Assembly: GCA_913060875.1 (NCBI GenBank)
Contig: CAJXSL010000021.1
Coordinates: 15,017-79,016, forward strand
Reading direction: 5' to 3'
DNA: 64,000 bases
Origin: an uncultured Desulfobacteraceae bacterium
GTDB lineage: Bacteria > Desulfobacterota > Desulfobacteria > Desulfobacterales > UBA5852
Shown: piece after piece, positions 4,497 to 43,727 of the stretch
Layout: every line of letters begins with the position of its first letter
How positions within the stretch are numbered: the stretch's first letter is position 1
Notes under the pieces: model-generated
Seen by the model: the letters and a program-made list of their open reading frames with translations, nothing else
Database searches by the model: none
Told to the model about the DNA's origin: nothing
Made by a program: the position numbers and the translations under genes

Positions 4497-4860
4497 AACA
4501 TATTCACCACAGAGACACGGTTGGCAAATAAGCCCCAAGCTCAAAGCTCAAAGCTCAAAGCTCAAAGCTCAAAGCTCAAAGCTCAAAGCTCAAAGCTCAA
4601 AGCTCAAAGCTCAAAGAAAAAAAACCGTGCGTAGGAACAGACGTCAAGCAAAAAATTTGATTTATAGAGGAAAAAATAGGAAGTGATGCCTTCGGCAGAG
4701 CTCGAAGCTCAAAGTTGAACCCGCCACCCTGAAAATTCTTTATTCTTTTTTTGTAGTTCCTTGGCGCTTTGAGCTCAGCCTTTAAGCTTGTTTTACCAGC
4801 TTTTCCCCTTTGAGCTTGACCCTTTGTGTTGTTTTTCCCAGGAGCGTTTCGCTCCTTTTC
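4497..4860 (+). repeat. IVS-like CAAAGCT-arm element, ORF-less copy
   Basis: Components: leader tattcaccacagagaca; (CAAAGCT)n at 4536-4616 (about 11-12 units); conserved module at 4617-4680 (ccgtgcgtaggaacagacgtcaagcaaaaaatttgatttatagagg); complementary arm at 4757-4826 (gcgctttgagctcagcctttaagcttg..cctttgagcttgaccctttg); GGAGCG-ttt-CGCTCC hairpin at 4842-4856. Confidence 0.8.
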
Positions 4861-4942: not shown

Positions 4943-7348
4943 ATGCGACGCCGGATACAACTTTTGCTCTGCACCGCTCTCATCCCGCTCATGGTGCTTT
5001 CCTGCAGCGGGCCCGAAGAAAAAAAAGCCAAATTCTTCCAAAAAGGCCAGACCCTTTTTGAGCAGGGCGACTTCACCAAGGCCCGCCTGGAATTCAAGAA
5101 TGCGCTGCAGATCGACCCCGAATATGTCGAAGCCTACTTCATGCTGGGCCGCCTGGAAATGAAAGAAAAAAACTTCAAAAAGGCCTTCGGGTATTTCAGC
5201 AAGACCGTGGAACTCGCCCCGGACTATGACAAAGGACACCTGGAGCTTGGCAAGCTGTTTCTGGCGGCCCGCGCCCTGGACCGGGCCCGTGAGAAGGCCG
5301 ACCTGCTTTTGGCCAAAGATCCGGTCAACAAAGACTACCGCATCCTCCACGCTGCCCTGCTGGTGGCCGAACAAAAATCGGACGCGGCCCAGGAAGCCCT
5401 ACAGGCCCTGCTGGCGGACGGGGTGACCCAACCGGATATCTACTACATGCTGGCCACCAATTATTCCCAAATGAAGCAAGACGCACAGGCCGAGGCCATC
5501 CTGAAGGATGGGATTCAGCAAAACCCGGACTCGACCGCCCTGCACCTTATCCTGGCCCGCTTTTACGCCGGCACCAAACAGCCGGAAAAAGCCATTGGCC
5601 ATGTGGAGCAAGTGATCGCCCTGGAGCCGGACAAAAGCGCCTATAAGCTGACCCTGGCAGGCCTCCAGCGCGATGCCGGCCAGCCTGTGGCCATGGAAAA
5701 AACCCTTCAGGCGCTGCTCCAGGCCGACCCGTCCGATGAGGAAGTCCGTCTGCAGGTGGCCCGCTTCTGGCTCCAGTCCCGCAATCCTGAAAAATGTGAA
5801 CAGGTCCTCCAGGAAGGCCTGGCCACCAACCCGGATAGCTACGACATGCGGCTTTTCCTGGCGGAAGTCTACACCAACACCCAGCGCACCGACCAGGCGG
5901 TCACTGTCCTTCGGGAAGCCCTTGCCATCGGCAAGGATCCGGCCAGCCCGGACAACCTGCGCACGAAAAACAGCCTGGCCAAGGTCTATCTCAAGCGCCA
6001 GGAACCGGAAACCGCCGAACGCCTGGTGGACGAGGTCCTCGCGGAGAGCCCCAAGAACATCGATGCCCAGATGATGAAAGGCAATTTGCGCCTCATGGCC
6101 GGTGACGGTCTGGCAGCCATCACCGCCTTCCGCACGGTCACGGCGGAGAAGCCCGACATGATTCCGGCCCATCTCAGCCTTAGCCAGGCCCACCTGGTGA
6201 ACAAAGAGCCGGCCCTGGCCCTGGACACCCTGCGCCAGGCCGCCACCACCCACCCGAATGCCAAGGAGGTGCGCCTGGCCCTGGCCCGTCTGCATGCCGG
6301 ACGGCAGGAATACGATGCCGCCGAAGCAGAACTCTACAAAATCCTGGCCCAGGACCCTCAGGATCAGAGGGTGCGGGCCAGTCTGGGCGACCTCCAGGCA
6401 GCCCAGGGCAAAAACGATGCGGCCGAGCAGACTTTTATGACCATCCGCGTCCAGGCCCCCAGGATTCCGGCCGGCTACCTGAAACTGGCACAGCTCTACT
6501 GGCGCACGGGCGACAAGGCCAAGGCCGTGGCCACCCTGGAAGACGGCTATTATAAGAACCCCATGTCGGTGCCGCTCTTCACCAACTTGGTACGCATGCA
6601 TCTGGCGGCCCAGAAACAGGACAAAGCCATTGCGCTGTGCCAGGACGCCATCGAGCGGGCACCGGAAAGCGCCTTTCCCTACAATGCCCTGGGCAGCGTG
6701 TTGACCGTCACTAAGGATTATGACGGCGCCCTCGCGGCCTTCAAGCAGGCCATTGAACGCCAGCCCCTGTGGCAGCCTCCCCACAACGGCCTGGCCCGGG
6801 TTTACCTCCTCCAGGGGAAGACCGACGAGGCCATTGCCCGACTGGAAGAAGCTACGGCCACCAACCCAAAAAACCAGGCCGCTTTCCTGACCCTGGCCAA
6901 TCTCTACGAACAGCGAGGGGAAAGCACCAAGGCCATGGAAATCTACAACCAGGCCCTGGAAGCCAACCCCCAAATGTGGGCGGCGGCCAACAACCTGGCC
7001 TTTCTGCTTTCCGAAACCGGCAGCGCTTCGGCCGCGGACCTGGACCGTGCCTCGCTGATGGCCATGAAAGCCTATACGATGCAACCGGAAAATCCAGTGG
7101 TGCTGGATACCATGGGCTGGATTCATTATCGCCGGGGCAACCTCCCCCAGGCCCTGAGCTTTATCGAGCAGGCCGTTGAAAAGAACGACGACAGCCCCAT
7201 CCTCAACTACCACCTGGCGGTGGTACTGCATGAAAGCGGCCGCCCCCTGGAAGCCGAATCCGCCCTCAAGAAAGCCCTGGCCGGCGATGAGGATTTCCAT
7301 GGCCGTGACGCAGCAGATAAACTCATGCAGGAACTTCAGGGGAGTTGA
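4943..7348 (+). CDS. PEP-CTERM-system TPR-repeat lipoprotein (PrsT-like)
   Basis: 801 aa. Lipoprotein signal peptide (..LIPLMVLSCSG). TPR repeats run throughout. RBS gggagg lies upstream. The gene sits inside an exosortase locus. Confidence 0.8.
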   Translation: MRRRIQLLLCTALIPLMVLSCSGPEEKKAKFFQKGQTLFEQGDFTKARLEFKNALQIDPEYVEAYFMLGRLEMKEKNFKKAFGYFSKTVELAPDYDKGHLELGKLFLAARALDRAREKADLLLAKDPVNKDYRILHAALLVAEQKSDAAQEALQALLADGVTQPDIYYMLATNYSQMKQDAQAEAILKDGIQQNPDSTALHLILARFYAGTKQPEKAIGHVEQVIALEPDKSAYKLTLAGLQRDAGQPVAMEKTLQALLQADPSDEEVRLQVARFWLQSRNPEKCEQVLQEGLATNPDSYDMRLFLAEVYTNTQRTDQAVTVLREALAIGKDPASPDNLRTKNSLAKVYLKRQEPETAERLVDEVLAESPKNIDAQMMKGNLRLMAGDGLAAITAFRTVTAEKPDMIPAHLSLSQAHLVNKEPALALDTLRQAATTHPNAKEVRLALARLHAGRQEYDAAEAELYKILAQDPQDQRVRASLGDLQAAQGKNDAAEQTFMTIRVQAPRIPAGYLKLAQLYWRTGDKAKAVATLEDGYYKNPMSVPLFTNLVRMHLAAQKQDKAIALCQDAIERAPESAFPYNALGSVLTVTKDYDGALAAFKQAIERQPLWQPPHNGLARVYLLQGKTDEAIARLEEATATNPKNQAAFLTLANLYEQRGESTKAMEIYNQALEANPQMWAAANNLAFLLSETGSASAADLDRASLMAMKAYTMQPENPVVLDTMGWIHYRRGNLPQALSFIEQAVEKNDDSPILNYHLAVVLHESGRPLEAESALKKALAGDEDFHGRDAADKLMQELQGS

Positions 7349-7354
7349 AAAAAA

Positions 7355-8045
7355 ACGCATATTCACCACAGAGACAGGAGCGCTTTGCGCTCCGTTGAAA
7401 GTTGGAGACAACGGCAAAGCTCAAAGCTCAAAGCTCAAAGCTCAAAGCTCAAAGCTCAAAGCTCAAAGCTCAAAGCTCAAACAAAAAACAGTGCGTAGCA
7501 ACAAACGTCAAGTAAAAATTTTACTTATGAGAGGTAAAAAATAGATTCACGGATCAATAACAAAATGTTTGGATATGAAGAGTTGAAAGTCTGGGATCGA
7601 GCGGTGTCATTTGCCGTAATGGTTATCGAGGCATCGGAGAGCATTGACACCGGCCGGCAGCATTATCGCCTGATAGAACAAATCGAAGCTTCTTCGACCA
7701 GTATTGCGATGAACATAGCCGAAGGTAAAGGTCGATTTTCCAAAAAAGAATTCAAACATTTTTGCTACATTGCCAGGGGCAGTCTGTACGAAACCGCAAC
7801 TCTGCTGGAAATTTTCCACCGTAAAGCCTGGATACCCACGAATACCTATAATGAACTGAAATCCGAAGCCATAGAGATCGCCGCCATGATCAAAGGGCTT
7901 ATCAATTCTCTTCAAACGGAATAAGCTTGTTTGTTTTCCTTTGCGCTTTCATCTTTGAGCTTCTTTTATCGCAGTTCCTTTCAGCTTTGAGCTTTCAGCT
8001 TCGAGCTCTGCTGGAGGCAGCACTTTCAGCTTGACCCTTTTTTTC
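7355..8045 (+). repeat. IVS-like CAAAGCT-arm element, full-length copy with an intact ORF
   Basis: Components: leader tattcaccacagagaca plus GGAGCG-cttt-GCGCTCC hairpin; (CAAAGCT)n at 7415-7480; conserved module at 7482-7540; ORF at 7565-7924; complementary degenerate array at 7937-8040 (ctttgagctt..cctttcagctttgagctttcagcttcgagc..). Confidence 0.8.
7565..7924 (+). CDS. four-helix-bundle protein (23S rRNA intervening-sequence protein family)
   Basis: 119-aa intact ORF MFGYEELKVWDRAVSF..IEQIEASSTSIAMNIAEGKGRFSKKEFKHFCYIARGSLYET..IKGLINSLQTE. This is the family signature. It has close paralogs at 13529-13888 and 26015-26381. Confidence 0.85.
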   Translation: MFGYEELKVWDRAVSFAVMVIEASESIDTGRQHYRLIEQIEASSTSIAMNIAEGKGRFSKKEFKHFCYIARGSLYETATLLEIFHRKAWIPTNTYNELKSEAIEIAAMIKGLINSLQTE

Positions 8046-8130
8046 GATAGTTCCTTGAAACCCAATATAATTAGTGATAATTATTGATAATAAGACCATT
8101 TCTCCAACGGAATCATACCAGAAACTGACA

Positions 8131-10142: not shown

Positions 10143-10530
10143 CGCCTTGCGGCAGTGCTCGAAGCGGCTGCCTGCGGCAAAGCTCAAAGCTCAAAGCTCA
10201 AAGCTCAAAGCTCAAAGCTCAAAGCTCAAAGAAAAAAACCGTGCGTAGGAACAAACGTCAATATAAAAATTGATTTTGAGGGGGGAAATAAGCCTTAAAG
10301 CTGAAAGAAAATGCGGTTTGTTCTTTTTACGTCAAGATATGGAAGGAACTTATTCTACCAATCGCAGTGCCCCAGCCCTGCCAAAGGCAGCCGATTGACG
10401 CTTCATGCTCTGCCGTAGCCCGCGTGTTTTTAGCTTGGCTTTTTTGCGATTGCTTTGAGCTTTCAGCTTGACGCTTTGAACTCTGCCGCAGGCAGCCTCT
10501 TTCAGCTTTGAGCTTGGCGCTTTTCCGAAG
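10143..10530 (+). repeat. IVS-like CAAAGCT-arm element, ORF-less copy
   Basis: It begins directly after the stop codon. Components: CTGCC-tgc-GGCA hairpins; (CAAAGCT)n at 10178-10231; conserved module at 10232-10290; shared remnant acttattctaccaatcgca; complementary arm at 10451-10523. Confidence 0.8.
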
Positions 10531-10610
10531 GCCCTAACGAACATAACGATCTAAACTATCGTAACGACCAAAACTAACATAGCTATCCAAACTATTTATC
10601 GGGAATCTCC

Positions 10611-12215: not shown

Positions 12216-12242
12216 ATTTGCCTGCGGCAAATCTATAACCCC
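12206..12242 (+). terminator. perfect 17-bp-stem hairpin overlapping the wzz-like stop codon (no T-tract)
   Basis: ggggttatagatttgcc-tgc-ggcaaatctataacccc. TAG 12213-12215 lies inside the 5' stem. It may act as a terminator or processing site, but there is no U-run. Confidence 0.4.
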
Positions 12243-12480
12243 AAGCTGAAAGGGACTGCGAAAAGATCGAAATATAAAATGGGAAAATAAGAAAAAGCTC
12301 AAAGCGGCAACCTGTAGGTTTTATCTATTTTCCTAATTCACTATTTTCCAATTTCTTGTTTTTGCCCTGTCTTTAAGCTTGGCGCTGCTTTTAACGCAGT
12401 TCCTTTGAGCTTTCAGCTTTGAGCTTCGAGCCCTGCCGCAGGCAGCCCTTTGAGCTTTCAGCTTGACGCTTTGAGCTTCA
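12243..12480 (+). repeat. CAAAGCT-family element, mainly the complementary (GAGCTTT) arm
   Basis: 12373-12478 reads cttggcgctgcttttaacgcagttcctttgagctttcagctttgagcttcgagccctgccgcaggcagccctttgagctttcagcttgacgctttgagc. Short sense units (aagctgaaagg, aaagctcaaagcgg) lie at 12243-12325. Confidence 0.75.
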
Positions 12481-12577
12481 TTATTGGCCTAAGGCCCCAA
12501 CTATCAAACTAACGAAACTATCAAGACTATCTTAACTGTCTACCATATTAACTCTTTAAACGATTATAAGGTACCCC

Positions 12578-13324: not shown

Positions 13325-13339
13325 GGACGAAGGCTCAGA

Positions 13340-14030
13340 GGGCCTGAGCTCAAAGCTCAAAGCTCAAAGCTCAAAGCTCAAAGCTCAAAGAAAACCGTGC
13401 GTAGGAACAGACGTCAAGCAAAAAATTTGATTTATAGAGGGAAATAAGCCTGAAGCTGAAAGCTGAAAGCTGAAAGGAAAACCTAAAACAAAGGGCAAAA
13501 TCAAATAAATTCGAAAATCAATAATCAAGCGTTTGGATATGAAGATCTTAAAGTTTGGGATCGAGCGGTGTCATTTGCCGTAATGGTTATCGACGCAACA
13601 GAATGTATTGACACCAGCCGGCAGCATTATCGTCTGATCGAGCAAATCGAAGCCTCCTCGACAAGTGTTGCCATGAACATTGCAGAAGGCAAAGGGCGTT
13701 TCTCCCTCAAGGAATTCAAACATTTTTGCTACATTTCCAGGGGCAGCCTGTACGAGACCATGACGCTACTGGAAATATTTCATCGTAAAGACTGGATATC
13801 TTCGGCGAAATATGACGAGTTAAAAGCGGAAGCCATTGAGATCGCCGCAATGATCAAAGGGCTTATCAATTCTCTTCGAACGGAATGAGCTTGTTTGTTT
13901 TCCTTCGCGCTTTACGATTTTAGGAAGTTCCTTTGAGCTTTCAGCTTGACGCTTTGAGCTTGTTTTTTCTCCCTTTGAGCTTTCAGCTTGGCGCTTCTTT
14001 TCATCGCTGTTCCTTTGAGCTTATTTCCCG
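13340..14030 (+). repeat. IVS-like CAAAGCT-arm element, full-length copy
   Basis: Components: (CAAAGCT)n at 13346-13390; conserved module at 13391-13445; (GAAAGCT)3 at 13449-13477; ORF; complementary arrays at 13929-14023. Confidence 0.8.
13568..13888 (+). CDS. four-helix-bundle protein paralog; ancestral ATG replaced (GCG at 13529-13531)
   Basis: Homology to the 7565 copy starts at 13532 (FGYEDLKVWDRAV..), but the codon aligned to its ATG is GCG. The first usable in-frame starts are GTG 13568 and ATG 13583. It is possibly a decaying copy. Confidence 0.6.
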   Translation: MSFAVMVIDATECIDTSRQHYRLIEQIEASSTSVAMNIAEGKGRFSLKEFKHFCYISRGSLYETMTLLEIFHRKDWISSAKYDELKAEAIEIAAMIKGLINSLRTE

Positions 14031-14357: not shown

Positions 14358-14753
14358 ATGCGCGGATTCTTGATTCGGTGGATCGTATTGGGCGTCGCCA
14401 TCAGCTTGGCGGCTTTTTTCCTGGACGGCATTCGTGTCAGCGGCATTCTGGCCACCCTGGGGGCCGCGGCCATGCTGGGGATCCTGAATGCCTTTTTCCG
14501 CCCTTTGGCCTTGATCATCACGCTGCCCATCAACATCCTGAGCCTGGGCCTGTTTACCTTTATCATCAATGCCGCCATGCTCAAGATGGCCTCCGCCCTG
14601 ATACCTGGATTCGATGTCCACGGGTTCTGGACGGCCATTTTCGGCTCACTGATCATCAGTATCGTCAGTTTTCTAATCAACAGTTTTGTCGATGACCGGG
14701 GGCAGGTGGACTTCATCGATCTGCATCACCGGGGCAACAATCGCTGGGAGTAG
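14358..14753 (+). CDS. DUF360 / phage-holin-4_2 family membrane protein
   Basis: 131 aa with four TM segments (..LGILNAFFRPLALIITLPINILSLGLFTFIINAAML..). RBS ggagga lies upstream. Confidence 0.75.
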   Translation: MRGFLIRWIVLGVAISLAAFFLDGIRVSGILATLGAAAMLGILNAFFRPLALIITLPINILSLGLFTFIINAAMLKMASALIPGFDVHGFWTAIFGSLIISIVSFLINSFVDDRGQVDFIDLHHRGNNRWE

Positions 14754-14755
14754 GA

Positions 14756-14818
14756 ACTGCCTTCGGCAGAGCTCAAAGCGGCTGCCTTTGGCAGAGCTCA
14801 AAGCTGAAAGCTCAAAGG
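14756..14818 (+). repeat. CAAAGCT-family half element (sense units only)
   Basis: The segment is ctgccttcggcagagctcaaagcggctgcctttggcagagctcaaagctgaaagctcaaagg. It is followed by aaaagcagaaaagagaaattaggaaaataag. Confidence 0.7.
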
Positions 14819-14925
14819 AAAAGCAGAAAAGAGAAATTAGGAAAATAAGTGTGCGACATGTAAATGGTTTGGTTTTCCATCCCAGTTACCTATTTCGCTA
14901 TTTTCTATTTGACTGAATTTCGACC

Positions 14926-15960: not shown

Positions 15961-15984
15961 CCCCGAATACATCATGAAGCTAAA

Positions 15985-16283
15985 AAAAGCTCAAAGCTCA
16001 AAGCTCAAAGCTCAAAGCTCAAAGCTCAAAGCTCAAAGCTCAAAGCTCAAAGAAAAAACCAGCACAGAGAAACAAACGTCAAGCAAAAAATTTGTTTTAG
16101 AGAGAAAAAAAACGATTCGCGGATCAATAACCAAGTATTTGGGCATGAAGAGTTGAAAAGCACTTATTCTACCAATCGCAATGGCCCGGAAAAAAATCAG
16201 TCACCGGCCATATCTATTGCTTCGAGCCTTGCTGTAGGCAGTCCCTTTCAGCTTTCAGCTTTGAGCTCTGCCGAAGGCAGCCG
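15985..16283 (+). repeat. IVS-like CAAAGCT-arm element with an internally deleted ORF
   Basis: Components: (CAAAGCT)n at 15985-16052; conserved module; ORF leader and first codons (gattcgcggatcaataaccaagtatttgggcatgaagagttgaaa), then a jump to acttattctaccaatcgca; complementary arm at 16221-16283. Confidence 0.8.
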
Positions 16284-16944
16284 CCTCATACGCCGTGTCC
16301 GCCGGCAGGTTCGGCCGGGACATGGCCTGACCGGCCAATTGATCACAACGCTCGTTCCATTCATGCCCGGCATGGCCCTTGACCCATCTGAATTCCACCT
16401 GCAGGGATCCCAGCCGGTCCAGAAGCCGCTTCCATAGATCCGGGTTTTTGGCCGGGTTGCCGTCCGCTTTTTTCCATCCCTTTTTTTTCCAGCCAAACAC
16501 CCATTTTTTATTGATGGCGTCCACCATGTAGCGGGAATCGCTGTGCAGGACAACGGGTCGGTCCCCTTCCAGGTGTTCCAATGCCACGATGCAGGCCATG
16601 AGCTCCATGCGGTTGTTGGTGGTCCGCCGGTAGCCTCCGGATAATTCCTGCCTGTCCCCCTGGGGAGAAATGATCACAACCCCGTACCCTCCGGGGCCCG
16701 GGTTGCCGATGGCGCCGCCGTCGGTATAGACCACCACTCGGGTGCCGTCGTCTGGCTGGGATTTCTTGGCGGAGGGCCGGCCTTCGCTCAAAAAGGCTTC
16801 CGCCTCTCCGCGGGTAGGGAATCCCCGATATTGTGCTCCGGCAAATCCCTGCACCTGAATTTGAGCGCCTTCCGGCCCGAACCATTCTCTGAATATACCG
16901 GTCTTGTGCCCCCGTCGGACGGCATAAAATTTCTTTTTGGCCAC
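16255..16944 (-). CDS. rnhA: ribonuclease HI with N-terminal hybrid-binding domain
   Basis: KKFYAVRRGHKTGIFREWFG..FPTRGEAEAFL is an RNase H1-type N-terminal domain. VVVYTDGGAIGNPGPGGYG..TNNRMELMA..WVKGHAGHEWNERCD is the catalytic domain. GTG 16944 with RBS aggaaa is preferred over TTG 16962. Confidence 0.9.
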   Translation of the reverse strand: MAKKKFYAVRRGHKTGIFREWFGPEGAQIQVQGFAGAQYRGFPTRGEAEAFLSEGRPSAKKSQPDDGTRVVVYTDGGAIGNPGPGGYGVVIISPQGDRQELSGGYRRTTNNRMELMACIVALEHLEGDRPVVLHSDSRYMVDAINKKWVFGWKKKGWKKADGNPAKNPDLWKRLLDRLGSLQVEFRWVKGHAGHEWNERCDQLAGQAMSRPNLPADTAYEAAAFGRAQS

Positions 16945-17149: not shown

Positions 17150-17290
17150 CAGGGTTTTGGGCCTTGAGCCTGTTGGAGGTCTTGGGCCTTCGGCCGTTGG
17201 AGGTTTTGGGCCTTCGGCCGTTTGAGGTATATGGTTTGAGGATTTTTTGCCTTCACCCTCCAACCTCAGACCTCCAACAGCTTGCGCAGC
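17150..17290 (+). repeat. short hairpin element with TTGGAGGT/TTGGGCC units and complementary CCTCCAAC units
   Basis: Left units: tgttggaggtcttgggccttcggccgttggaggttttgggccttcggccgtttgaggt. Complementary units: caccctccaacctcagacctccaac. Confidence 0.7.
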
Positions 17291-17329
17291 AAACCTCTTT
17301 GAGCTTTTCCCTATTTCCATATTTTCTGA

Positions 17330-17436
17330 TTTCTCCTTTCTGCTTTTCCTTTGAGCTTTCAGCTTTGAGCTCTGCCGCAGGCAGCCGCTTTGAGCTTTCA
17401 GCTTTCAGCTTCGAGCTCTGCCGCAGGCAAGAGCGC
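17330..17436 (+). repeat. CAAAGCT-family element, complementary (GAGCTTT) arm only
   Basis: The segment is ctgcttttcctttgagctttcagctttgagctctgccgcaggcagccgctttgagctttcagctttcagcttcgagctctgccgcaggca. Confidence 0.75.
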
Positions 17437-18353: not shown

Positions 18354-18381
18354 GTTGGAGGTTGGAGGATTGAGGAATGGG
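18354..18381 (+). repeat. GTTGGAG-type array (outer left arm)
   Basis: The array is gttggag gttggag gattgag gaatggg. Complementary units (cccctccaacctctaacgcc) lie at 18937-18956. Confidence 0.6.
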
Positions 18382-18389
18382 CGAAAAAA

Positions 18390-18775
18390 AAGTATTCACC
18401 ACAGGGACACAGAGGGGGACTATAAGCGCCAAGCTCAAAGCTCAAAGCTCCAAGCTCAAAGCTCCAAGCTCAAAGCTCCAAGCTCAAAGCTCAAAGCTCC
18501 AAGCTCCAAGCTCAAAGAAAAAATAGTGCGTATAAACAAACGTCAAGCAAAAAATTTGACTTTGAGATGAAAAAAATCGATTTGCGGATCAATAACCAAG
18601 TATTTGGCTATGAGGAATCTCCAGGTTTTCGGGTTCAGCTTTGAGCTTGAAGCTTTTGTTGCCGCAGTTCCTTTGAGCTTTGAGCTTGGCGCTTTGAGCT
18701 CTGCCAAAGGCAGTCCTTTCAGCTTGGCGCTGCTTTTCTCCGTGCCTCGAGCGCAGCGGGTGGTTAAAACTATAG
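18390..18775 (+). repeat. IVS-like CAAAGCT/CCAAGCT-arm element with an internally deleted ORF
   Basis: Components: leader gtattcaccacagggaca; mixed (CAAAGCT/CCAAGCT)n at 18430-18517; conserved module; ORF leader plus about 5 codons (gatttgcggatcaataaccaagtatttggctatgagg), then the complementary arm at 18634-18735. Confidence 0.8.
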
Positions 18776-20371: not shown

Positions 20372-21745
20372 ATGCGCACTGCCATAGTGAACTATCTAAA
20401 AAAGGTTAGAGAAATTCCTGAAGGTAAATTCCCCCCTGTATATTATACCCCTCCGATGTTACGCATGTTTATCTTTGGTACTTTCGTCTACCCTCTCGGG
20501 TTTGCAACACATGCGTTATTCCTCGTCGTTTTTGCATTCCTCGGTGTAAAGTGGTTAGCGCTTTTTAACATCCTGAGCGTAACAATGTGGGCAACTTCTT
20601 TCTTCTTGCACCGGAATGGATATTTCAATCTTGGCTTTGCCATAGTAACCATTGAAGTCATTGCCCATGCTGGATTATGCGTCATTTTTCTTGGGTGGGC
20701 TGCCGGTTTTCAATTCTATTTAGTGCCCATTCCAGTTGTTGTATTTTTTACCCACTGGCACACGTCTCGCAAAGCATTAATTGCCCTTTTATTTTGTGTC
20801 TCGTTCGTTTTAATGCACTACTATATTCGACCATTGAAACCGATCGTTGAGCTTGATCCTATATATCTCTCCTTCCTTTACTACGGCAACTATTTTTCGG
20901 TAAGTTTTGTATTCGCGACCTTTAGCTACTCGTTCTATATCGCGACTATCAGTGCCGAAGAGAAGCTTGAAACAGCGCACCACAGAACAAATAGCGTTCT
21001 AAAGCAACTCAATGGAGAACTGTCAGAAGCAGCGGGATACGTCAAAAAAATCTTGCCACAACCCGTTACAAAAGGGTCTATAAGGACAAACTGGCGCTTT
21101 ATTCCTTCAACCTCATTGGGTGGAGATGCATTTGGGTACCACAAAGTTGATGAGGACCATTTCGCGGTCTATTTGATAGACGTTAGTGGTCATGGTGTAG
21201 GGGCTGCTTTGCTTTCAGTGTCTGTAATCAACATGCTGCGCTCTCAATCGCTACCGAGTACTGATTTCAAAGATCCCCAGCAGGTCTTGCAAGCTCTTAA
21301 TCTTGCCTTCCCGAGTGAATCCCACAAAGACATGTTTTTCACCATCTGGTATGGCGTTTACAATCTCAACACTCGGGAATTAACATATGCAAGTGCGGGG
21401 CATCCTCCTGCAATTTTATGCAGCGATGCGACCTCATCAGATTGTAAGATTGATCTGCTCAAGACTCCCAATTTTGTAGTTGGTGCGATTGGTGAGGCTG
21501 CTTACAACAAGAGTAAATGCAATGTCGAGAAGGGGGGCACTCTATACATCTTTTCCGACGGAGTCTACGAAGTTGAGAAATCCGATGGATCAATGTGGTG
21601 CTTTAAAGAGTTCGCTGAGTACCTCAAAACGATCAAACTCGAAAATAAGCCCATCCTTGATCGACTGTATGAATATGCCAGAAACCTCGGTAAATCTGAC
21701 CGTTTTGAAGATGACTTTACGATTTTGGAGGTTGCCTTCGTATAA
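20372..21745 (+). CDS. membrane-anchored PP2C/SpoIIE-family serine phosphatase
   Basis: 457 aa. About 190-aa N-terminal polytopic domain. The C-terminal part reads SLGGDAFGYHKVDEDHFAVYLIDVSGHGVGAALLS..YASAGHPP..LYIFSDGVYE. RBS aggaggg upstream. The region is AT-richer than its flanks. Confidence 0.85.
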   Translation: MRTAIVNYLKKVREIPEGKFPPVYYTPPMLRMFIFGTFVYPLGFATHALFLVVFAFLGVKWLALFNILSVTMWATSFFLHRNGYFNLGFAIVTIEVIAHAGLCVIFLGWAAGFQFYLVPIPVVVFFTHWHTSRKALIALLFCVSFVLMHYYIRPLKPIVELDPIYLSFLYYGNYFSVSFVFATFSYSFYIATISAEEKLETAHHRTNSVLKQLNGELSEAAGYVKKILPQPVTKGSIRTNWRFIPSTSLGGDAFGYHKVDEDHFAVYLIDVSGHGVGAALLSVSVINMLRSQSLPSTDFKDPQQVLQALNLAFPSESHKDMFFTIWYGVYNLNTRELTYASAGHPPAILCSDATSSDCKIDLLKTPNFVVGAIGEAAYNKSKCNVEKGGTLYIFSDGVYEVEKSDGSMWCFKEFAEYLKTIKLENKPILDRLYEYARNLGKSDRFEDDFTILEVAFV

Positions 21746-22301: not shown

Positions 22302-22379
<78 letters not shown>

Positions 22380-23113: not shown

Positions 23114-24430
<1,317 letters not shown>

Positions 24431-24690: not shown

Positions 24691-24767
24691 CGGGAAGTGG
24701 CTCAGCCTGGTAGAGCACAGCGTTCGGGACGCTGGGGTCGCTGGTTCAAATCCAGTCTTCCCGACCA
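24691..24767 (+). tRNA. tRNA-Pro (anticodon CGG)
   Basis: CGGGAAGTGGCTCAGCCTGGTAGAGCACAGCGTTCGGGACGCTGGGGTCGCTGGTTCAAATCCAGTCTTCCCGACCA. The anticodon arm is CAGCG-TTCGGGA-CGCTG. Confidence 0.9.
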
Positions 24768-25834: not shown

Positions 25835-26460
25835 GCAGCGCCAAGCTCAAAGCGTCAAGCTGAAAGGACTGCCTTTGGCAGAGCTCAAAGCGGCAAGCTC
25901 AAAGCTGAAAGCCCAAAGCTCAAAGGGACGGCAATAACAAGAAGCGTGAAGCCCAAAGCTGAAAGCTCAAAGGAACTTCCTAAAATCGTAAAGCGCGAAG
26001 GAAAACAAACAAGCTCATTCCGTTCGAAGAGAATTGATAAGCCCTTTGATCATGGCGGCGATCTCTATGGCTTCGGATTTCAGTTCCGAATAGGTATTCG
26101 TGGGTATCCAGGCTTTACGATGAAAAATTTCCAGCAGAGTGGTGGTTTCGTATAGGCTGCCCCTGGCAATGCAGCAAAAATGTTTGAATTCTTTTCTGGA
26201 AAATCGACCTTTGCCTTCGGCTATGTTCATCGCAACACTTGTCGAGGAGGCTTCGATTTGCTCGATCAAACGATAATGCTGCCGGCCCGGTGTCAATGCT
26301 CTCCGATGCGTCGATAACCATGACGGCAAATGAGACCGCACGATCCCATACTTTCAACTCTTCATATCCAAACTGTTGCATAGCTCTACCCTAGTCGCTG
26401 ATTGCTCCAAGGTCTTAATGGTTTTCCTTTCAGCTTTCAGCTTTGAGCTTTGAGGCTTCA
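25835..26460 (-). repeat. IVS-like CAAAGCT-arm element, inverted orientation, carrying a frameshifted ORF
   Basis: 25835-26010 is the mirror of the right arm of the 13340-14030 copy (..ggaacttcctaaaatcgtaaagcgcgaaggaaaacaaacaagc). 26425-26455 is the mirror of the left arm (cctttcagctttcagctttgagctttgagg). Confidence 0.8.
26015..26381 (-). pseudogene. four-helix-bundle protein paralog with a +1 frameshift
   Basis: MQQFGYEELKVWDRAVSFAVMVIDASESIDTG (frame A) and RQHYRLIEQIEASSTSVAMNIAEGKGRF..INSLRTE (frame B) are separated by one extra base. The plus-strand ccc at 26286-26288 corresponds to cc at the aligned position of the intact 7565 copy. Confidence 0.8.
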
Positions 26461-27759
26461 CGTCGACAGCAGGTAAGTCCTCAAATTGGTACCGGTGCGG
26501 TGCAGCCCCAGTTTGCGTCTTATATTAAGCCGATGCATATCCACCGTGCGGGTGGAAATATTCAATACCGACGCGATCTCTTTGGTGGTCCGGCCGTATT
26601 TGACCAGATTGGCGACTTCGATTTCACCGGGGGTCAACAGCATCAAACGCGGTGAAAGCCCCTTGTTATAGGGGGCGGTCATCTCTTTCAGATTCGCGGA
26701 TAGTAGATCCACATAAATTTTTTGCCGGTCATTCAACCCGCTAGTGCGAAGTTTGTCCATGATCGGATCGATCAGTTGATGCAAGCCCTTCGCAAAAGCA
26801 TTTTTTAATTCCGCTTTGTCGCTTTCACGCATATCCACCAGTTTCCGCAAGGCGGTATTCATTTTTTCCAACTGCTCGTTTTTCTTCTGAAGTTCTTCTT
26901 CCCTTTGGTGCAGCAGGTTCTCAGCTTCTTTTTTGGCGGTAATGTCAGTGATGATAGCAAAACTTATATCCGAACCTCCGTCGACATTGGAAAGTATCTG
27001 CGGTGAGATAATGCTGAATTTCGGCTCATCCTTTTTGCTTTTCCAGCGGATTTCAAACGCATGGCGTAAATTGCGCCCCTGCCCTGTCAGCCGTTGATAT
27101 ATCAGTTTCGATACATCCGGCGGTAAAAAATCCTGAACTTTGCGTCCGATGAGTTCATCGGAGCGGTAGCCGCTGATATTCTCGAGGTGTTGATTAACGT
27201 AAAGGATCCGCCCATCGTTATCCAGGATAATCAACCCCTCCTTCATGGTTTCCACGAGCCGCCGAAACCGCTTTTCGCTTTCTTCGAGCGCTATCAAGGT
27301 TTGCTTATGTTCATTGATGTTGTAAACCACAACTGACGCACCCCGTACGCTGTCGTTTTCAAAGAAATATTGGACCTCGAACTGGGCCCATAGGGTACGG
27401 CCATCCTTGATCCTTATCTGGTACTGAACACGGCTGGGAACAATTTCACCGCGTTGTATCTTTTCGAAGCGTTCAAGAAAATCATTAAGACTGACCTCGG
27501 TCAGAAATGCGGTCATTGGCATGGACAAAAATTCTTCACGCGTGTAGCCGGTAAAATCCAGAATTGAGCGGTTTACCGAGACACATCTTCCGCTGGCCAT
27601 ATCGATTTGATACATCCCCACGGGTGCATTATCAAAAAGTCGGCGATAGCTTTCCGCCACTGAAACGTTCTGTTGTACGGCACCGCGTAACGACCTGTTC
27701 TCCGATTCAAGTTCCTTCAAGCGGCTTGTAAGGGCGCTATGTTCCGCGTCATTCGCCAT
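26458..27759 (-). CDS. PAS-domain LuxR-family transcriptional regulator
   Basis: It has a coiled-coil, two PAS-like modules and a C-terminal HTH (LTPGEIEVANLVKYGRTTKEIASVLNISTRTVDMHRLNIRRKLG). The start is taken at ATG 27759 (MANDAEH..). The longer ORF, open to 28029, overlaps the upstream gene. Confidence 0.8.
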   Translation of the reverse strand: MANDAEHSALTSRLKELESENRSLRGAVQQNVSVAESYRRLFDNAPVGMYQIDMASGRCVSVNRSILDFTGYTREEFLSMPMTAFLTEVSLNDFLERFEKIQRGEIVPSRVQYQIRIKDGRTLWAQFEVQYFFENDSVRGASVVVYNINEHKQTLIALEESEKRFRRLVETMKEGLIILDNDGRILYVNQHLENISGYRSDELIGRKVQDFLPPDVSKLIYQRLTGQGRNLRHAFEIRWKSKKDEPKFSIISPQILSNVDGGSDISFAIITDITAKKEAENLLHQREEELQKKNEQLEKMNTALRKLVDMRESDKAELKNAFAKGLHQLIDPIMDKLRTSGLNDRQKIYVDLLSANLKEMTAPYNKGLSPRLMLLTPGEIEVANLVKYGRTTKEIASVLNISTRTVDMHRLNIRRKLGLHRTGTNLRTYLLST

Positions 27760-28666
27760 AACGTCTTCCGTAATCAATCCCAAATAGGGCGGCCGCATTA
27801 TCGCCCAAAATCTTCCGGAGCGATTCGGCATCCAACCCCATCTTTTCCATTCGACGCAACTCCCGGTCCCAGGCATAGGGAATATTCGGAAAATCCGTCC
27901 CGTAAAGGATCCGTTCCGTTCGCATGCCGGCAATGTCTGGAGGGCTTGCCATTGGCAAATAGTCTGCCAACACCATGGTGGTATCCAGCCACAGGTGGTC
28001 AAACCGCTCCAAAAGCCTCTGGTAGGCATCGAATTCGTCCGCCCCGAGATGCGGGACCACCAGTTTCAAGGCGGGATAGGCTTGCAGCACTTTTTCGACA
28101 TTGGTCCAGTGGCAGATCGTGTAGGGGTCGCAGGGATAAGCCGGGCTCTTGGGCTCGCGGCCTGCATGAATCACCAGCGGCCGGTCGTGATCGCAGCAGG
28201 CTGTGTAGACCGCGTGCATCCCGGGGCTGTCCATGGTGAAACACTGCACATGACTGTGCAGTTTAACCCCTTTAAGCCCATTTTTAAACGCCTTTGCCAG
28301 AATGCCCTCCGCATCCTCCTCTCCGGGGAAAACCGTGGCCAGACCGGTTACCGCCTGGTTTTTCCGCACGAGATCGGTCATATAGCGGTTCAGTTCGTCC
28401 GCCACGCCCGGTTTGTGGGCGTATTGGAGGGCAACAATATGGCTAATCCCTTTCTCGAGCAGGAAATCAATCAGATCGTCCGTATAGAGTCGGTAACGTA
28501 TCGGCCAACCGAACTGATCGAACCATCCCCAGACCGCATCGAAAAGCGCATCCGGAAAAATATGGACGTGGGCGTCCACCACCGGCGGCAAGTTATCGGG
28601 CACGCGTTCTCCTTCCGGGTCATCCAGGGCGGGCAGCGGCAGCGTGATGTTCTTCGTCGGTTCCAT
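27749..28666 (-). CDS. amidohydrolase-2 (TIM-barrel metal-dependent hydrolase) family protein
   Basis: It has VVDAHVHIFPD.., ..KLHSHVQCF.. and ..YGTDFPNIPY. ATG 28666 has RBS aggaga. Confidence 0.75.
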   Translation of the reverse strand: MEPTKNITLPLPALDDPEGERVPDNLPPVVDAHVHIFPDALFDAVWGWFDQFGWPIRYRLYTDDLIDFLLEKGISHIVALQYAHKPGVADELNRYMTDLVRKNQAVTGLATVFPGEEDAEGILAKAFKNGLKGVKLHSHVQCFTMDSPGMHAVYTACCDHDRPLVIHAGREPKSPAYPCDPYTICHWTNVEKVLQAYPALKLVVPHLGADEFDAYQRLLERFDHLWLDTTMVLADYLPMASPPDIAGMRTERILYGTDFPNIPYAWDRELRRMEKMGLDAESLRKILGDNAAALFGIDYGRRYGE

Positions 28667-43640: not shown

Positions 43641-43727
43641 TGGTGCCGAAGGGGAGATTCGAACTCCCACATCCGTACGGATACTAGACCCTGAACCTAG
43701 CGCGTCTACCAGTTCCGCCACTTCGGC
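43641..43727 (-). tRNA. tRNA-Leu (anticodon CAG)
   Basis: The reverse complement is GCCGAAGTGGCGGAACTGGTAGACGCGCTAGGTTCAGGGTCTAGTATCCGTACGGATGTGGGAGTTCGAATCTCCCCTTCGGCACCA. It has a long variable arm. The anticodon loop is TTCAGGG. Confidence 0.9.

Follow-up and report, generated by a model that had tools for sequence, protein, structure and literature searches.

The window analysed here, a 64,000-nt stretch of DNA from an uncultured Desulfobacteraceae bacterium, carries at 7349-8045 a small ORF enclosed by inverted arrays of a 7-nt tandem repeat. The element lies where the initial annotation had placed it, between prsT-like and polysaccharide-export genes, which match PrsT (TIGR02917, E = 1e-98) and a PEP-CTERM polysaccharide export protein (TIGR03027). 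Its parts are as follows:

7349-7414, + strand: 5' leader, beginning directly after the PrsT stop codon
7415-7481, + strand: 5' arm, 9.6 perfect CAAAGCT (= AAAGCTC) heptamers (TRF period 7, 100% matches)
7482-7544, + strand: module of ~60 nt (AAAAAACAGTGCGTAGCAACAAACGTCAAG...AAAAAATAG), lineage-specific, present six times in the window (87-94% identity)
7545-7564, + strand: ORF leader (ATTCACGGATCAATAACAAA), also kept at 16116-16135 and 18581-18600 in copies lacking the ORF
7565-7924, + strand: intact four-helix-bundle ORF of 119 aa with an ATG start, PF05635/TIGR02436 (S23p, '23S rRNA IVS protein')
7925-8045, + strand: 3' arm, degenerate reverse-complement array of CTTTGAG/CTTTCAG/CTTCGAG units

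The leader includes a ATTCACCACAGAGACA fragment from another hairpin-repeat family and a small hairpin (GGAGCGC-TTTG-GCGCTCC); it shares 19 identical nucleotides with 4499-4517 and also matches loci L003 and L134. The roughly nine CAAAGCT units first counted at 7415-7480 proved to be the 9.6 perfect units listed above, and the degenerate reverse-complement array noted 3' of the ORF was likewise recovered: TRF reports 4.3 copies of CTTTGAG/CTTTCAG at 82% in 7978-8007, five exact T[CG]AGCTT units lie within 7956-8032, and more degenerate units occur from 7937 on. A further hairpin (GCTGC-TGGAG-GCAGC) is embedded in this 3' arm. The window arrays consist of head-to-tail 7-nt units in non-coding DNA, as identified by TRF. 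At the gathering threshold, Rfam returned three tRNAs and no rRNA for the whole window, and at an E-value threshold the region 7300-8120 gave only sub-threshold microRNA matches, due to the repeat. Searches for a defence or phage function with PADLOC and PHROGs gave no match.

The two arms pair with each other well beyond shuffled expectation. Their top ungapped inverted repeat (7415-7481 with 7978-8011) spans 34 nt at 88% complementarity, with six 7-nt registers, and the arm-arm duplex of the element reaches -79.2 kcal/mol compared to -46.3 +/- 6.9 kcal/mol in 200 dinucleotide shuffles, none of which did as well (z = -4.8), so that the ORF is bounded, like that of a 23S rRNA intervening sequence (IVS), by complementary sequences forming an enclosing stem. 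The arms also pair in the minimum-energy fold of the whole region, whether it is folded as RNA (-181.2, z = -2.3) or ssDNA (-91.7, z = -2.4), and the folding test against shuffled controls proposed in the initial annotation thereby came out in its favor. Its 'very long stem' was a generous description of arms that do pair, but as a series of 5-13 bp helices broken about once per heptamer. Inverted repeats of at least 24 nt lying no more than 900 nt apart number 73 pairs in 1-27 kb of the window compared to 2 in 27-64 kb, indicating that the arrangement of the arms is not due to chance. There was no excess of G·U among arm mismatches (80 G·U-type versus 79 A·C-type, with most mismatches, 319, being transversions), and cognate arms were barely better paired than arms combined across cassettes (-65.7 versus -64.2 kcal/mol, p = 0.07 by permutation). 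With neither G·U bias nor cassette-specific covariation, the arms give no positive sign of RNA base-pair selection beyond the shared motif.

The assignment of the 119-aa product to the IVS-protein family is secure, with scores far above the curated cut-offs of PF05635 (E = 3e-30, 104.9 bits versus 33.8) and TIGR02436 (E = 4e-31, 107.4 bits versus 24) and 77 bits with the PRK12275 subfamily models of NCBIfam. Residues 4-117 match PDB 2GSC (XCC0516, E = 4e-9), and the protein also matches PDB 2RLD (E = 1e-6); with five chains each, both are solved pentameric four-helix-bundle structures. Compared to its orthologue in L003, the ORF has a dN/dS of 0.13 (0.18 for PrsT), which indicates a generally functional four-helix-bundle ORF; at 89% protein identity dS has already reached 0.46, and synonymous sites saturate at larger divergences. 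However, no Shine-Dalgarno sequence lies within 12 nt of the ATG at 7565 and three of the four family ORFs in the window are disabled, suggesting that the protein is dispensable here.

We then compared the element with 67 distinct homologous genes from metagenomes (65-89% identity), and found that the same layout recurs. At least two AAAG[CG]T[CG] (AAAGSTS) units lie within 150 nt upstream in 52/64 homologues and at least two complement units lie downstream in 41/61, compared to 0/64 and 0/61 for the opposite orientations, while 54 of 58 cassettes have at least one unit on both sides. Control windows carry the motif in 22/904 and 17/904 cases (about 2%). When the upstream flank was aligned to the reverse-complemented downstream flank, the median local alignment score was 50, compared to 16 for direct and 19 for shuffled alignment, and it was the higher in 56/57 cassettes; lag-7 periodicity is present in both arms of the 67 cassettes. 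The gene upstream is co-directional in 53/53, whereas downstream neighbors are co-directional in 42 and opposite in 8, with a median spacer of 91 nt. Arms start a median of 8 nt past the upstream stop codon and finish a median of 24 nt ahead of the next start. Neighboring genes mostly concern sugars and polysaccharides (DegT aminotransferases, epimerases/dehydratases, Polysacc_synt_2 and PglD-type acetyltransferases), with the order DegT-4HB-PglD retained across diverged operons, and the cassette also sits co-oriented inside CRISPR-cas operons, where four-helix-bundle genes of this family have been noted (PMC3936711). Among the named hosts are anammox Planctomycetota, Deltaproteobacteria MAGs and Coatesbacteria, and culturable ones include Nostoc sp. 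ATCC 53789 (pNsp_c, 96.4-96.9 kb) and Anabaena sp. 90 (pANA02, gene order cas6-4HB-cas4). Some cyanobacterial members depart from the layout, with one-sided arrays or arrays that are direct rather than inverted (L214, L216 and L217).

A second subfamily of the protein, subfamily B, has a heptamer of its own, GTTAWTN, in the same inverted layout at 6/6 loci. Per locus, A flanks average 3.07 copies of motif A and none of motif B, B flanks average 4.67 of motif B and none of motif A, and other family members carry additional units (TGAGCTA, GGACAGA and GGGAAAA/TTTTCCC). Scanning viral contigs with subfamily B gave no hits. Arrays of (AAGCTCA)n also stand alone in the listed genome tiles of many phyla, as would be expected if a common microsatellite had merely come to lie beside an unrelated small ORF. 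However, such chance juxtaposition is refuted by the fixed polarity of 54 of 58 independent cassettes, in which the motif precedes the ORF and its complement follows (about 2% in control windows), and by the 6/6 loci of subfamily B with their own motif in this layout, and we give it practically no credence. Sequence comparison thus identifies in 7349-8045 a copy of a cassette that is both conserved and distributed horizontally, comprising a TIGR02436/PF05635 ORF and inverted, subfamily-specific heptamer arrays. Its polarity is AAAGCTS upstream and SAGCTTT downstream, and its site is the spacer between co-directional genes, mostly of surface-glycan operons. The presence of one gene-plus-repeat package in many unrelated environmental bacteria marks it as a travelling cassette. 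The initial annotation had proposed an IVS-like stem-plus-ORF design outside rRNA as a class of element, and the same inverted arms in dozens of unrelated contigs, together with a second subfamily that uses a different heptamer, strongly support this.

About ten related hairpin elements, most of them decayed and most ORF-less, occupy spacers over 1.4-26.5 kb of the window. Four of the window's elements are four-helix-bundle cassettes, and only the copy at 7349-8045 has an intact ORF. The related elements are listed below, with z values for arm-arm duplex energies:

2190-2862, + strand: second-subfamily four-helix-bundle cassette, ORF at about 2376-2752 with CAG>TAG at 2559-2561; z = -3.5
4499-4830, + strand: E1, ORF-less copy with leader, 11.4 perfect heptamers (4537-4616), module (4617-4680) and degenerate 3' arm; z = -3.4
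10143-10530, + strand: E3, ORF-less copy with 7.7 heptamers, module and 3' arm; z = -6.2
12216-12480, + strand: E4, decayed copy, chiefly the 3' arm (12371-12478)
13325-14030, + strand: E5, copy with 6.3 heptamers, module, (AAGCTGA)3, ORF and 3' arm; z = -3.8
14754-14830, + strand: E6, fragment with 5'-arm-type units and two CTGCC-TTYG-GCAG hairpins
15975-16285, + strand: E7, ORF-deleted copy with 9.6 heptamers, module, the initial ~24 nt of the ORF and 3' arm; z = -3.4
17290-17430, - strand: E8, arm-type array flanked by two minus-strand genes, AAGCTSA on the minus strand
18395-18770, + strand: E9, ORF-deleted copy with 12.4 AAGCTCA/AAGCTCC units, module, ORF stub and 3' arm; z = -6.0
25835-26457, - strand: E10, inverted copy, four-helix-bundle ORF 26015-26390 (-) with a +1 frameshift; z = -3.1

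The second-subfamily cassette carries GGnnAATT/GGTTAATTG-type repeats (2193-2360) and their complement at 2757-2862, with an inverted repeat of 40 nt at 75%. E3 has the best arm pair of the window, 55 nt at 84%, and the E5 four-helix-bundle ORF (13535-13888) has its ATG changed to GCG. E7 is 87% identical to 7416-7588, and E10 is 89% identical to 7567-8002 and points in the same direction as the PAS-LuxR gene at 26458-28029. E9 is nested within a CACAGAG-type inverted-repeat element. The conserved ~60-nt module pointed out in the initial annotation is real, but it belongs to this lineage: more than 200 other loci outside this population contain no copy and Rfam has no match, which rules it out as a general part of the cassette. 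Turnover is rapid. In a comparison with L003, spacers are wholly remodelled although genes are 87-93% identical, and a cassette that follows the tyrosine kinase in the window is absent from L003. The array of E1 has 11.4 units compared to 13.4 in the otherwise identical assembly L001, and this 14-nt (two-unit) difference in length is the sole difference between the two assemblies in 15.9 kb. In this population the cassette has also multiplied locally, giving ORF-less hairpin derivatives whose perfect arrays are expanded and prone to slippage and which carry a 60-nt module private to the population.

Terminal inverted repeats in multiple dispersed copies are also hallmarks of MITE or foldback elements, and the cassette may be a mobile element acting at the DNA level, with the inverted heptamer arrays serving as terminal inverted repeats or ssDNA hairpins for a recombinase whose gene lies elsewhere or which the four-helix-bundle protein recruits, and the RNA hairpin a by-product. 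About ten copies within 26 kb, some of them ORF-less through internal deletion, the nesting of E9, differences in presence and the full swapping of spacers between genomes with genes ~90% identical, and cassettes in distant phyla with proteins ~70-90% identical would all fit such mobility, as would the pairing of the arms in the ssDNA fold and the lack of G·U bias and cognate covariation, which is expected if it is the double-stranded motif that matters. However, no transposase or recombinase was found among the called genes within or beside any cassette examined, and between the window and L003 spacer replacement is seen with neither a clean empty site nor a target-site duplication definable. 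The strict co-orientation (53/53) and the restriction of arms to untranslated spacers fit action at the transcript level better, although selection after random insertion could also produce both, and the DegT-4HB-PglD order kept across diverged operons implies long residence rather than frequent hopping. We consider this explanation possible but doubtful; it is compatible with the one that we favor below, and the two are not mutually exclusive.

Slippage-prone arrays could instead be phase-variable simple-sequence repeats whose length switches or tunes the adjacent EPS genes, the ORF being incidental. SSR-dependent phase variation involving RNase III is reportedly documented in Haemophilus, the arrays here are perfect over 6-12 units, and the only polymorphism between the two near-identical assemblies is one of array length; heptamer copy number also differs among Coxiella strains (PMC4990558). 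However, the arrays are intercistronic and lie neither between promoter hexamers nor within reading frames, a repeat stem pairs in any 7-nt register so that gain or loss of units should matter little, and the inverted partner array and conserved linkage to the ORF are left unexplained. We therefore regard phase variation as very unlikely to be what these arrays are for.

The relationship between array and ORF proved to be asymmetric. The initial annotation had expected the two to be associated; the ORFs are indeed flanked by inverted arrays, but the arrays are not unique to the ORF, given the mostly ORF-less elements of the window and the solo arrays elsewhere. Among the matches listed, 120 genome tiles hold (AAGCTCA)n, mostly as solo arrays, and only 3 of these tiles have a four-helix-bundle gene nearby, indicating that association runs from ORF to arms and not from array to ORF, and ruling out (AAGCTCA)n as a general marker of four-helix-bundle genes. 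The same 120 listed tiles contain 201 perfect arrays of period 7, compared to 0-4 for periods 5, 6, 8 and 9, and the solo arrays favor neither orientation with respect to transcription (18 versus 28).

These arrays bear on a further explanation, in which protein and repeat would form a regulatory module: the protein may bind the heptamers of its own subfamily as RNA or DNA, with ORF-less arrays as operator-like sites, so that one protein would tune translation, stability or processing across the EPS cluster. Consistent with this, the heptamer follows the protein subfamily, motifs A and B being mutually exclusive; the motif persists at divergences that have saturated synonymous sites, with no fine tuning of complementarity; and a single intact ORF stands amid many arrays of its own heptamer in one cluster. 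The homologue Avd binds RNA and the reverse transcriptase in diversity-generating retroelements (PMC10053308), and an unidentified partner of cyanobacterial heptamer repeats has been postulated (bioRxiv 10.1101/2022.06.06.494920). However, the window protein is mildly acidic (pI 5.9), which does not favor nucleic-acid binding, although the subfamily medians are higher (7.8 and 8.75). Perfect arrays persist here even though three of the window's four ORFs are broken, a simple ssRNA-binding protein would need no inverted symmetry, and few listed arrays have the gene nearby, although action in trans requires no proximity. As a full account, a regulatory module of this kind is conceivable, though we think it rather improbable.

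Among known systems, the cassette most resembles the 23S rRNA IVSs of Leptospira and of Coxiella burnetii helix 45, in which an S23p/PF05635 ORF likewise occupies the loop of an inverted-repeat stem. In Coxiella this stem is 28 bp, two or three strain-variable GACAGAT heptamers lie 5' of the ORF and RNase III cleaves at the first of them (PMC4990558), so that tandem heptamers of variable copy number on the 5' side and a decay-prone ORF are common to both. In contrast, the window element lies between protein-coding cistrons rather than in helix 25 or 45, its arms are long arrays of a different heptamer, and it occurs in multiple copies, with derivatives that lack the ORF; excision by RNase III is demonstrated for the IVS and, by analogy, would apply to the window element. 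The initial annotation knew of no tandem-repeat arms described around such ORFs; Coxiella provides a precedent for the heptamers, while the class itself appears to be new. An open-access literature search for PF05635/TIGR02436/S23p with heptamers or polysaccharide loci returned, as relevant, only the Coxiella (PMC4990558), cas-locus (PMC3936711) and diversity-generating retroelement (PMC10053308) papers.

Intergenic tandem heptamers are familiar in their own right. The STRR sequences of cyanobacteria are intergenic tandem heptamer repeats. TAACTGA repeats occur in Beggiatoaceae, Cyanobacteria and Bacteroidetes (PMC4679880) and heptanucleotide elements in Geobacter (PMC2700814). All share with the window arrays a period of 7, intergenic location, patchy distribution over phyla and an unexplained function, but they are described as direct arrays, typically close upstream of start codons, whereas the window arrays are inverted pairs around a specific ORF family. 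The link to four-helix-bundle proteins is absent from the heptamer papers, with 'four helix' and 'S23' each occurring 0 times in PMC4679880.

Avd, the accessory protein of diversity-generating retroelements, has a homologous pentameric four-helix-bundle fold; PF05635 is treated as Avd-like in PMC10053308, and one cyanobacterial family member weakly matches the Avd model NF033474. However, the window protein has no NF033474 match at E <= 1e-3 and no reverse transcriptase was found among the called neighbor genes of any cassette examined, which places the element outside these retroelements. Integron gene cassettes are comparable as small promoterless ORFs with an imperfect inverted-repeat site and co-directional insertion, but the window element has two separate tandem-repeat arms rather than one attC, and cassettes of its type are scattered in ordinary operons, among glycan-pathway genes, rather than stacked in an array, which sets it apart from integron cassettes. 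No integron integrase was identified among the called genes beside the cassettes examined, which include one integrase-family neighbor, in Calothrix (L214). The long terminal inverted repeats of eukaryotic foldback elements are composed of short tandem repeats. MITEs and foldback transposons thus share with the cassette inverted arms of short tandem units, many and deleted copies, nesting and rapid turnover, but the cassette has no known transposase, no identified target-site duplication and a strict co-orientation with host transcription. Intercistronic RNase III processing stems are found in the polycistronic mRNAs of phages (the T7 early region and lambda). These long imperfect stems in the spacers of a read-through transcript are our working functional analogy, although they are short local hairpins with no enclosed gene, while the window stem spans a ~450-nt ORF-bearing loop.

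For the cassette as a whole we lean, with somewhat better than even confidence, toward an rRNA-IVS-type element resident in mRNA operons, in which excision or insulation by the stem would be combined with recognition of the heptamer; we infer RNase III-type excision or insulation of the transcript as the best analogy for its action. Since the spacer leaves no room for a promoter of its own and the direction is always that of the upstream gene, the cassette is probably transcribed by read-through from that gene. The arms would then pair in the transcript, as in the ORF-bearing 23S rRNA IVSs of Coxiella and Leptospira that RNase III excises. Such a stem would juxtapose the upstream stop and the downstream start, shield ~200 nt of untranslated RNA from Rho and provide an RNase III site freeing the ORF-containing loop, which together could explain why insertion is tolerated within an operon. 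Because what is conserved, and differs between subfamilies, is the heptamer and not the fine complementarity, the repeat probably doubles as a site of sequence-specific recognition, possibly, and most economically, by the four-helix-bundle protein itself.

Extended to the whole family, this suggests a broader conjecture, unlikely but worth stating, that S23p/TIGR02436 proteins are the missing sequence-specific partners of bacterial tandem heptamers, each subfamily recognizing and moving with a heptamer of its own (AAAGCTS, GTTAWTN, TGAGCTA, GACAGAT and others), that ORF and inverted arrays make up a self-contained cassette colonizing transcribed operon spacers, and that ORF-bearing 23S IVSs are the members that landed in rRNA. 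To our knowledge, IVS ORFs and bacterial tandem heptamers have both been known for about three decades with no accepted function. The locus and the comparative data indicate that the IVS ORF family and heptamer repeats belong together, and a curiosity of rRNA genes becomes, on sequence evidence, a widespread and apparently undescribed class of operon-resident cassette. Such cassettes account for many 'four helix bundle protein' genes found interrupting glycan or cas loci and previously read as functional partners of these systems, and their slippage-prone arrays are likely causes of assembly breaks and strain-level length variation. If S23p proteins are indeed the partners of the heptamers, two puzzles of some 30 years, the role of the IVS ORF and the purpose of the heptamers, would be joined.

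The element at window positions 7349-8045, a four-helix-bundle ORF enclosed by inverted heptamer arrays, lies between the genes for PrsT (TIGR02917) and a PEP-CTERM-type polysaccharide export protein, in a gene cluster that also encodes an XrtD-type exosortase, a chain-length determinant and a tyrosine kinase. Its parts are:

7415-7481, 5' array, 9.6 copies of CAAAGCT at 100% identity (Tandem Repeats Finder)
7565-7924, intact four-helix-bundle ORF, 119 aa (PF05635, E = 3e-30; TIGR02436 'four helix bundle protein', E = 4e-31)
7925-8045, 3' array downstream of the ORF, degenerate reverse-complement units CTTTGAG, CTTTCAG and CTTCGAG

The initial annotation had described this arrangement correctly, from the approximately nine CAAAGCT units and the degenerate complementary array to the intact ORF and its place between prsT-like and polysaccharide-export genes. 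Within the 3' array, 7978-8007 scores as 4.3 copies at 82%, and 7956-8032 holds five exact T[CG]AGCTT units. The very long stem that had been proposed held in part: arm-arm duplex energy is -79.2 kcal/mol versus -46.3 +/- 6.9 in dinucleotide shuffles (z = -4.8), and the arms pair in whole-region folds both as RNA and as ssDNA (z about -2.3 each), but the stem is a string of short helices, broken about once per heptamer, rather than a perfect duplex. The best ungapped match between the arms is 34 nt at 88%, and the 3' segment involved fits the perfect array of the 5' arm at six registers spaced by 7 nt. The ORF evolves under purifying selection (dN/dS 0.13, versus 0.18 for PrsT), and its product shows a sequence relationship to 2GSC and 2RLD, both of which are pentameric four-helix-bundle structures. 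Directly behind the 3' arm, at 8044-8071, stands a sigma-70-like promoter match (TCGATA-16-TATAAT), and the element that precedes PrsT closes with an intrinsic-terminator-like hairpin (4840-4856); a relative keeps both features, so co-transcription across the elements need not extend to every gene of the cluster.

The ORF and its inverted arms form a conserved unit. Homologues of about 70% identity in anammox Planctomycetota (Ca. Wujingus, Scalinduaceae) and one further contig occupy short spacers between co-directional genes, built of an AAAGCTS-type heptamer, with arms such as AAAGCTCAAAGCTGAAAG upstream and CCTTTCAGCTTTGAGCTT downstream. For a larger sample, a metagenome scan gave 518 relatives, the best 80 of which represent 67 distinct genes of this subfamily (A). 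At least two AAAG[CG]T[CG] units lay within 150 nt upstream in 52/64 of these genes and the reverse complement in 0/64, while at least two complement units lay downstream in 41/61 and the forward motif in 0/61; 54/58 had at least one unit on each side of the ORF, and 150-nt control windows drawn from the contigs of these genes gave 22/904 and 17/904. Upstream flanks aligned to reverse-complemented downstream flanks with a median score of 50, compared to 16 for direct and 19 for shuffled flanks, the inverted score being the higher in 56/57. The cassette is co-oriented with its upstream gene (53/53; downstream, 42 neighbours on the same strand versus 8 opposite), and its arms are restricted to untranslated spacers: the upstream spacer has a median of 91 nt, the distance from the upstream stop to the start of the arms a median of 8 nt, and that from the end of the arms to the next start codon a median of 24 nt. 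The commonest neighbours are DegT-type aminotransferases, nucleotide-sugar epimerases/dehydratases, Polysacc_synt_2 proteins and PglD-type acetyltransferases.

The repeat unit is specific to the protein subfamily. AAAG[CG]T[CG] averages 3.07 per locus in subfamily A versus 0 in subfamily B, and GTTAWTN 0 versus 4.67, so that the two motifs are mutually exclusive; a lag-7 periodicity peak is present in both arms. The sample beyond subfamily A is small, and all of its proteins pass TIGR02436:

Window pseudogene, about 2376-2752: GGnnAATT/GGTTAATTG-type upstream, complement downstream (40 nt at 75%)
Subfamily B, Ca. Desulfacyla (L084) and loci L218, L223, L226 and L227, all in glycan operons: GTTAWTN upstream, NAWTAAC downstream
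Gemmatimonadaceae locus: (TGAGCTA)n upstream, GCTCA-type units downstream, polarity opposite to subfamily A
Peribacteria locus, ending within the ORF: (TGAGCTA)n upstream
Locus L205, ending within the ORF: (GGACAGA)n upstream
Nostoc plasmid copy: GGGAAAA upstream, TTTTCCC downstream

In subfamily B locus L223 (2898-3387 and beyond), the gene caller merged an NTP-transferase with another PF05635 hit, which points to a second cassette directly downstream in this sugar operon; the fetched stretch ends before that point. Three more cyanobacterial copies have one-sided or direct heptamer arrays. Two of these, on Anabaena sp. 90 pANA02 and a Pseudanabaena galeata plasmid (L216 and L217), lie between cas6 and cas4 in type I-D CRISPR-cas operons; one gene of the pair has about 50 GGTGACA/GGGAACA heptamers upstream, the other (AAAAGCT)16 upstream and (AAAAGCC)n downstream. 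PF05635 genes have been recorded within cas loci without a cassette explanation (PMC3936711), and these array-bordered genes suggest that they are passengers of this kind.

Within the window, the CAAAGCT heptamer, forward then reverse-complemented, occupies spacers from 1.4 to 26.5 kb. BLAST with 7349-8073 as query mapped the shared parts:

4549-4679, 10178-10271, 13347-13447, 15986-16158 and 18452-18616, array plus a module of about 60 nt, 87-94% identity
13503-13960, ORF plus 3' arm, 81%
26373-25948, ORF plus 3' arm, inverted, 89%
12371-12457, 17344-17429 and 18626-18738, 3' arms only

The module had been called conserved; it recurs at the array-plus-module sites listed, but occurs nowhere else in the more than 200 loci examined. 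Local amplification has been accompanied by decay. Copies 15975-16285 and 18395-18770 have lost all of the ORF beyond its initial ~20 nt and are thus internal-deletion derivatives, and 7565-7924 is the sole intact ORF:

13535-13888, ORF copy, ATG lost
26015-26390, ORF copy, +1 frameshift
about 2376-2752, fourth ORF, different subfamily, nonsense codon (CAG>TAG)

Arm pairs of the window copies all exceed shuffled controls (z = -3.1 to -6.2), and the first 27 kb contain 73 pairs of inverted repeats (minimum length 24 nt, at most 900 nt apart) versus 2 pairs in the other 37 kb. Every copy has the orientation of its flanking gene(s), including the inverted copy, placed after a minus-strand PAS-LuxR gene. 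Elements past 14 kb fall outside the EPS operon proper, among genes for a holin-like protein (PF04020), DnaJ-domain and glycine-zipper proteins, an acyltransferase, a SpoIIE phosphatase, purA and the PAS-LuxR regulator:

14358-14753, 20372-21745, 23138-24430 and 26458-28029, neighbour regions
22305-22379 (-), 24691-24764 (+) and 43644-43727 (-), tRNA genes

One repeat element appears to have been taken up into a coding region: the XrtD exosortase/EpsI fusion gene (537-2189) carries in-frame AAGCTCA-type units and a CTGCC-TGCG-GCAG mini-hairpin (1440-1515) encoding a low-complexity linker (…IAQSSKQLPAAERQAQSVKLKATSEKQ…), around which its TIGR04152 match is broken in two. Degenerate 9-nt repeats (AACTATCNN / AACGAWCNN) lie beyond 3' arms at 10535-10595 and 12499-12531, each immediately 5' of a start codon, that of the chain-length determinant (10611) in the first case and that of the tyrosine kinase (12578) in the second.

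Comparison with relatives revealed rapid turnover of the spacers. In a related organism (L002/L003), genes are 87-93% identical at the DNA level in conserved order, and a four-helix-bundle gene (89% protein identity) again separates PrsT from the export gene; its cassette has a 5' array of only 2.4 units, lacks the 60-nt module and keeps the 3' arm. The cassette that stands behind the tyrosine kinase in the window is missing from this organism. A second assembly of the same population (L001) matches the window over 15.9 kb with 0 mismatches and one 14-nt gap, array 4537-4616 having 11.4 heptamers in the window versus 13.4 in L001 (9581-9674), a slippage-type difference that is either real polymorphism or assembly collapse.

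The relative's remaining spacers hold other hairpin-repeat families. One, with GTTGGAG/GTTTGAG units, complement CCTCCAA and GGCC-TTCG-GGCC mini-hairpins, predominates where AAGCTCA elements stand in the window (window 17150-17290, 18354-18375; L003 868-1000, 8729-8900, 10878-10950, 11760-12010). Another is an inverted-repeat element of about 196 nt with terminal CACAGAG-type heptamers (TTCACCACAGAGGACACAGAG … CTCTGTGTCTCGAGCGCAGCGGGTGGTTAA), in tandem copies in L003 (3600-3990, 4400-4600) and as fragments in the window (4499-4517, 7358-7376, and 18395-18420 with 18735-18770); one of these encloses the AAGCTCA element of 18.4-18.8 kb. Between PrsT and the four-helix-bundle gene, the relative alone has a small PD-(D/E)XK-type ORF (PF13366, PDDEXK_3; L003 4005-4382), which may be another type of small-ORF passenger, since the CACAGAG element stands on both of its sides.

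The heptamer itself is a currency of wider use than the cassette. Arrays of three or more AAGCTCA units are present in at least 120 genome stretches, which represent many phyla; among the matches listed, just 3 have a four-helix-bundle gene nearby, the majority of arrays are solo, and the arrays show no preferred orientation with respect to the genes beside them, indicating that the association runs from ORF to arms. Perfect period-7 arrays in these listed stretches number 201, versus 0-4 for periods 5, 6, 8 and 9, in agreement with the excess of heptamer repeats published for bacteria without explanation (PMC4679880, PMC2700814).

Several components were previously known: rRNA IVSs (intervening sequences) with an S23p ORF, intergenic heptamer repeats, stray PF05635 genes in cas loci, and the heptamers of the Coxiella burnetii 23S IVS. 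This last qualifies the earlier view that such an element class is undescribed, because the Coxiella IVS places a decaying, probably untranslated S23p ORF within an element with a 28-bp stem; on the 5' side lie GACAGAT heptamers, two or three depending on the strain, and RNase III cleaves at the first of them (PMC4990558). In the searchable open-access literature, we found nothing that describes, as a general rule, an operon-resident cassette in which this ORF family moves together with inverted heptamer arms specific to each subfamily, nor any description of the concentration of this cassette in glycan loci or of amplified ORF-less derivatives as in the window.

The cassette would be transcribed by read-through, and its arms would pair in the transcript on the model of the homologous rRNA IVS. 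Plausibly, RNase III would then cut out the loop, the upstream stop would be brought beside the downstream start, and untranslated RNA would be shielded from Rho. A purely RNA-structural role is disfavored by the arm mismatches, which show no G·U excess (80 vs 79) and are mostly transversions, and by the lack of stronger pairing between cognate than between non-cognate arms (p=0.07). Foldback or MITE-like mobility at the DNA level may coexist with a transcript-level role; no recombinase was seen within or beside any cassette examined. Conservation of the heptamer across divergences large enough to saturate synonymous sites, and its change alongside the protein subfamily, suggest that the repeat is recognized in a sequence-specific manner. 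The cheapest hypothesis is that the encoded pentameric protein recognizes its own heptamer; its homologue Avd, the accessory protein of diversity-generating retroelements, is a cofactor that binds nucleic acid and RT (PMC10053308).
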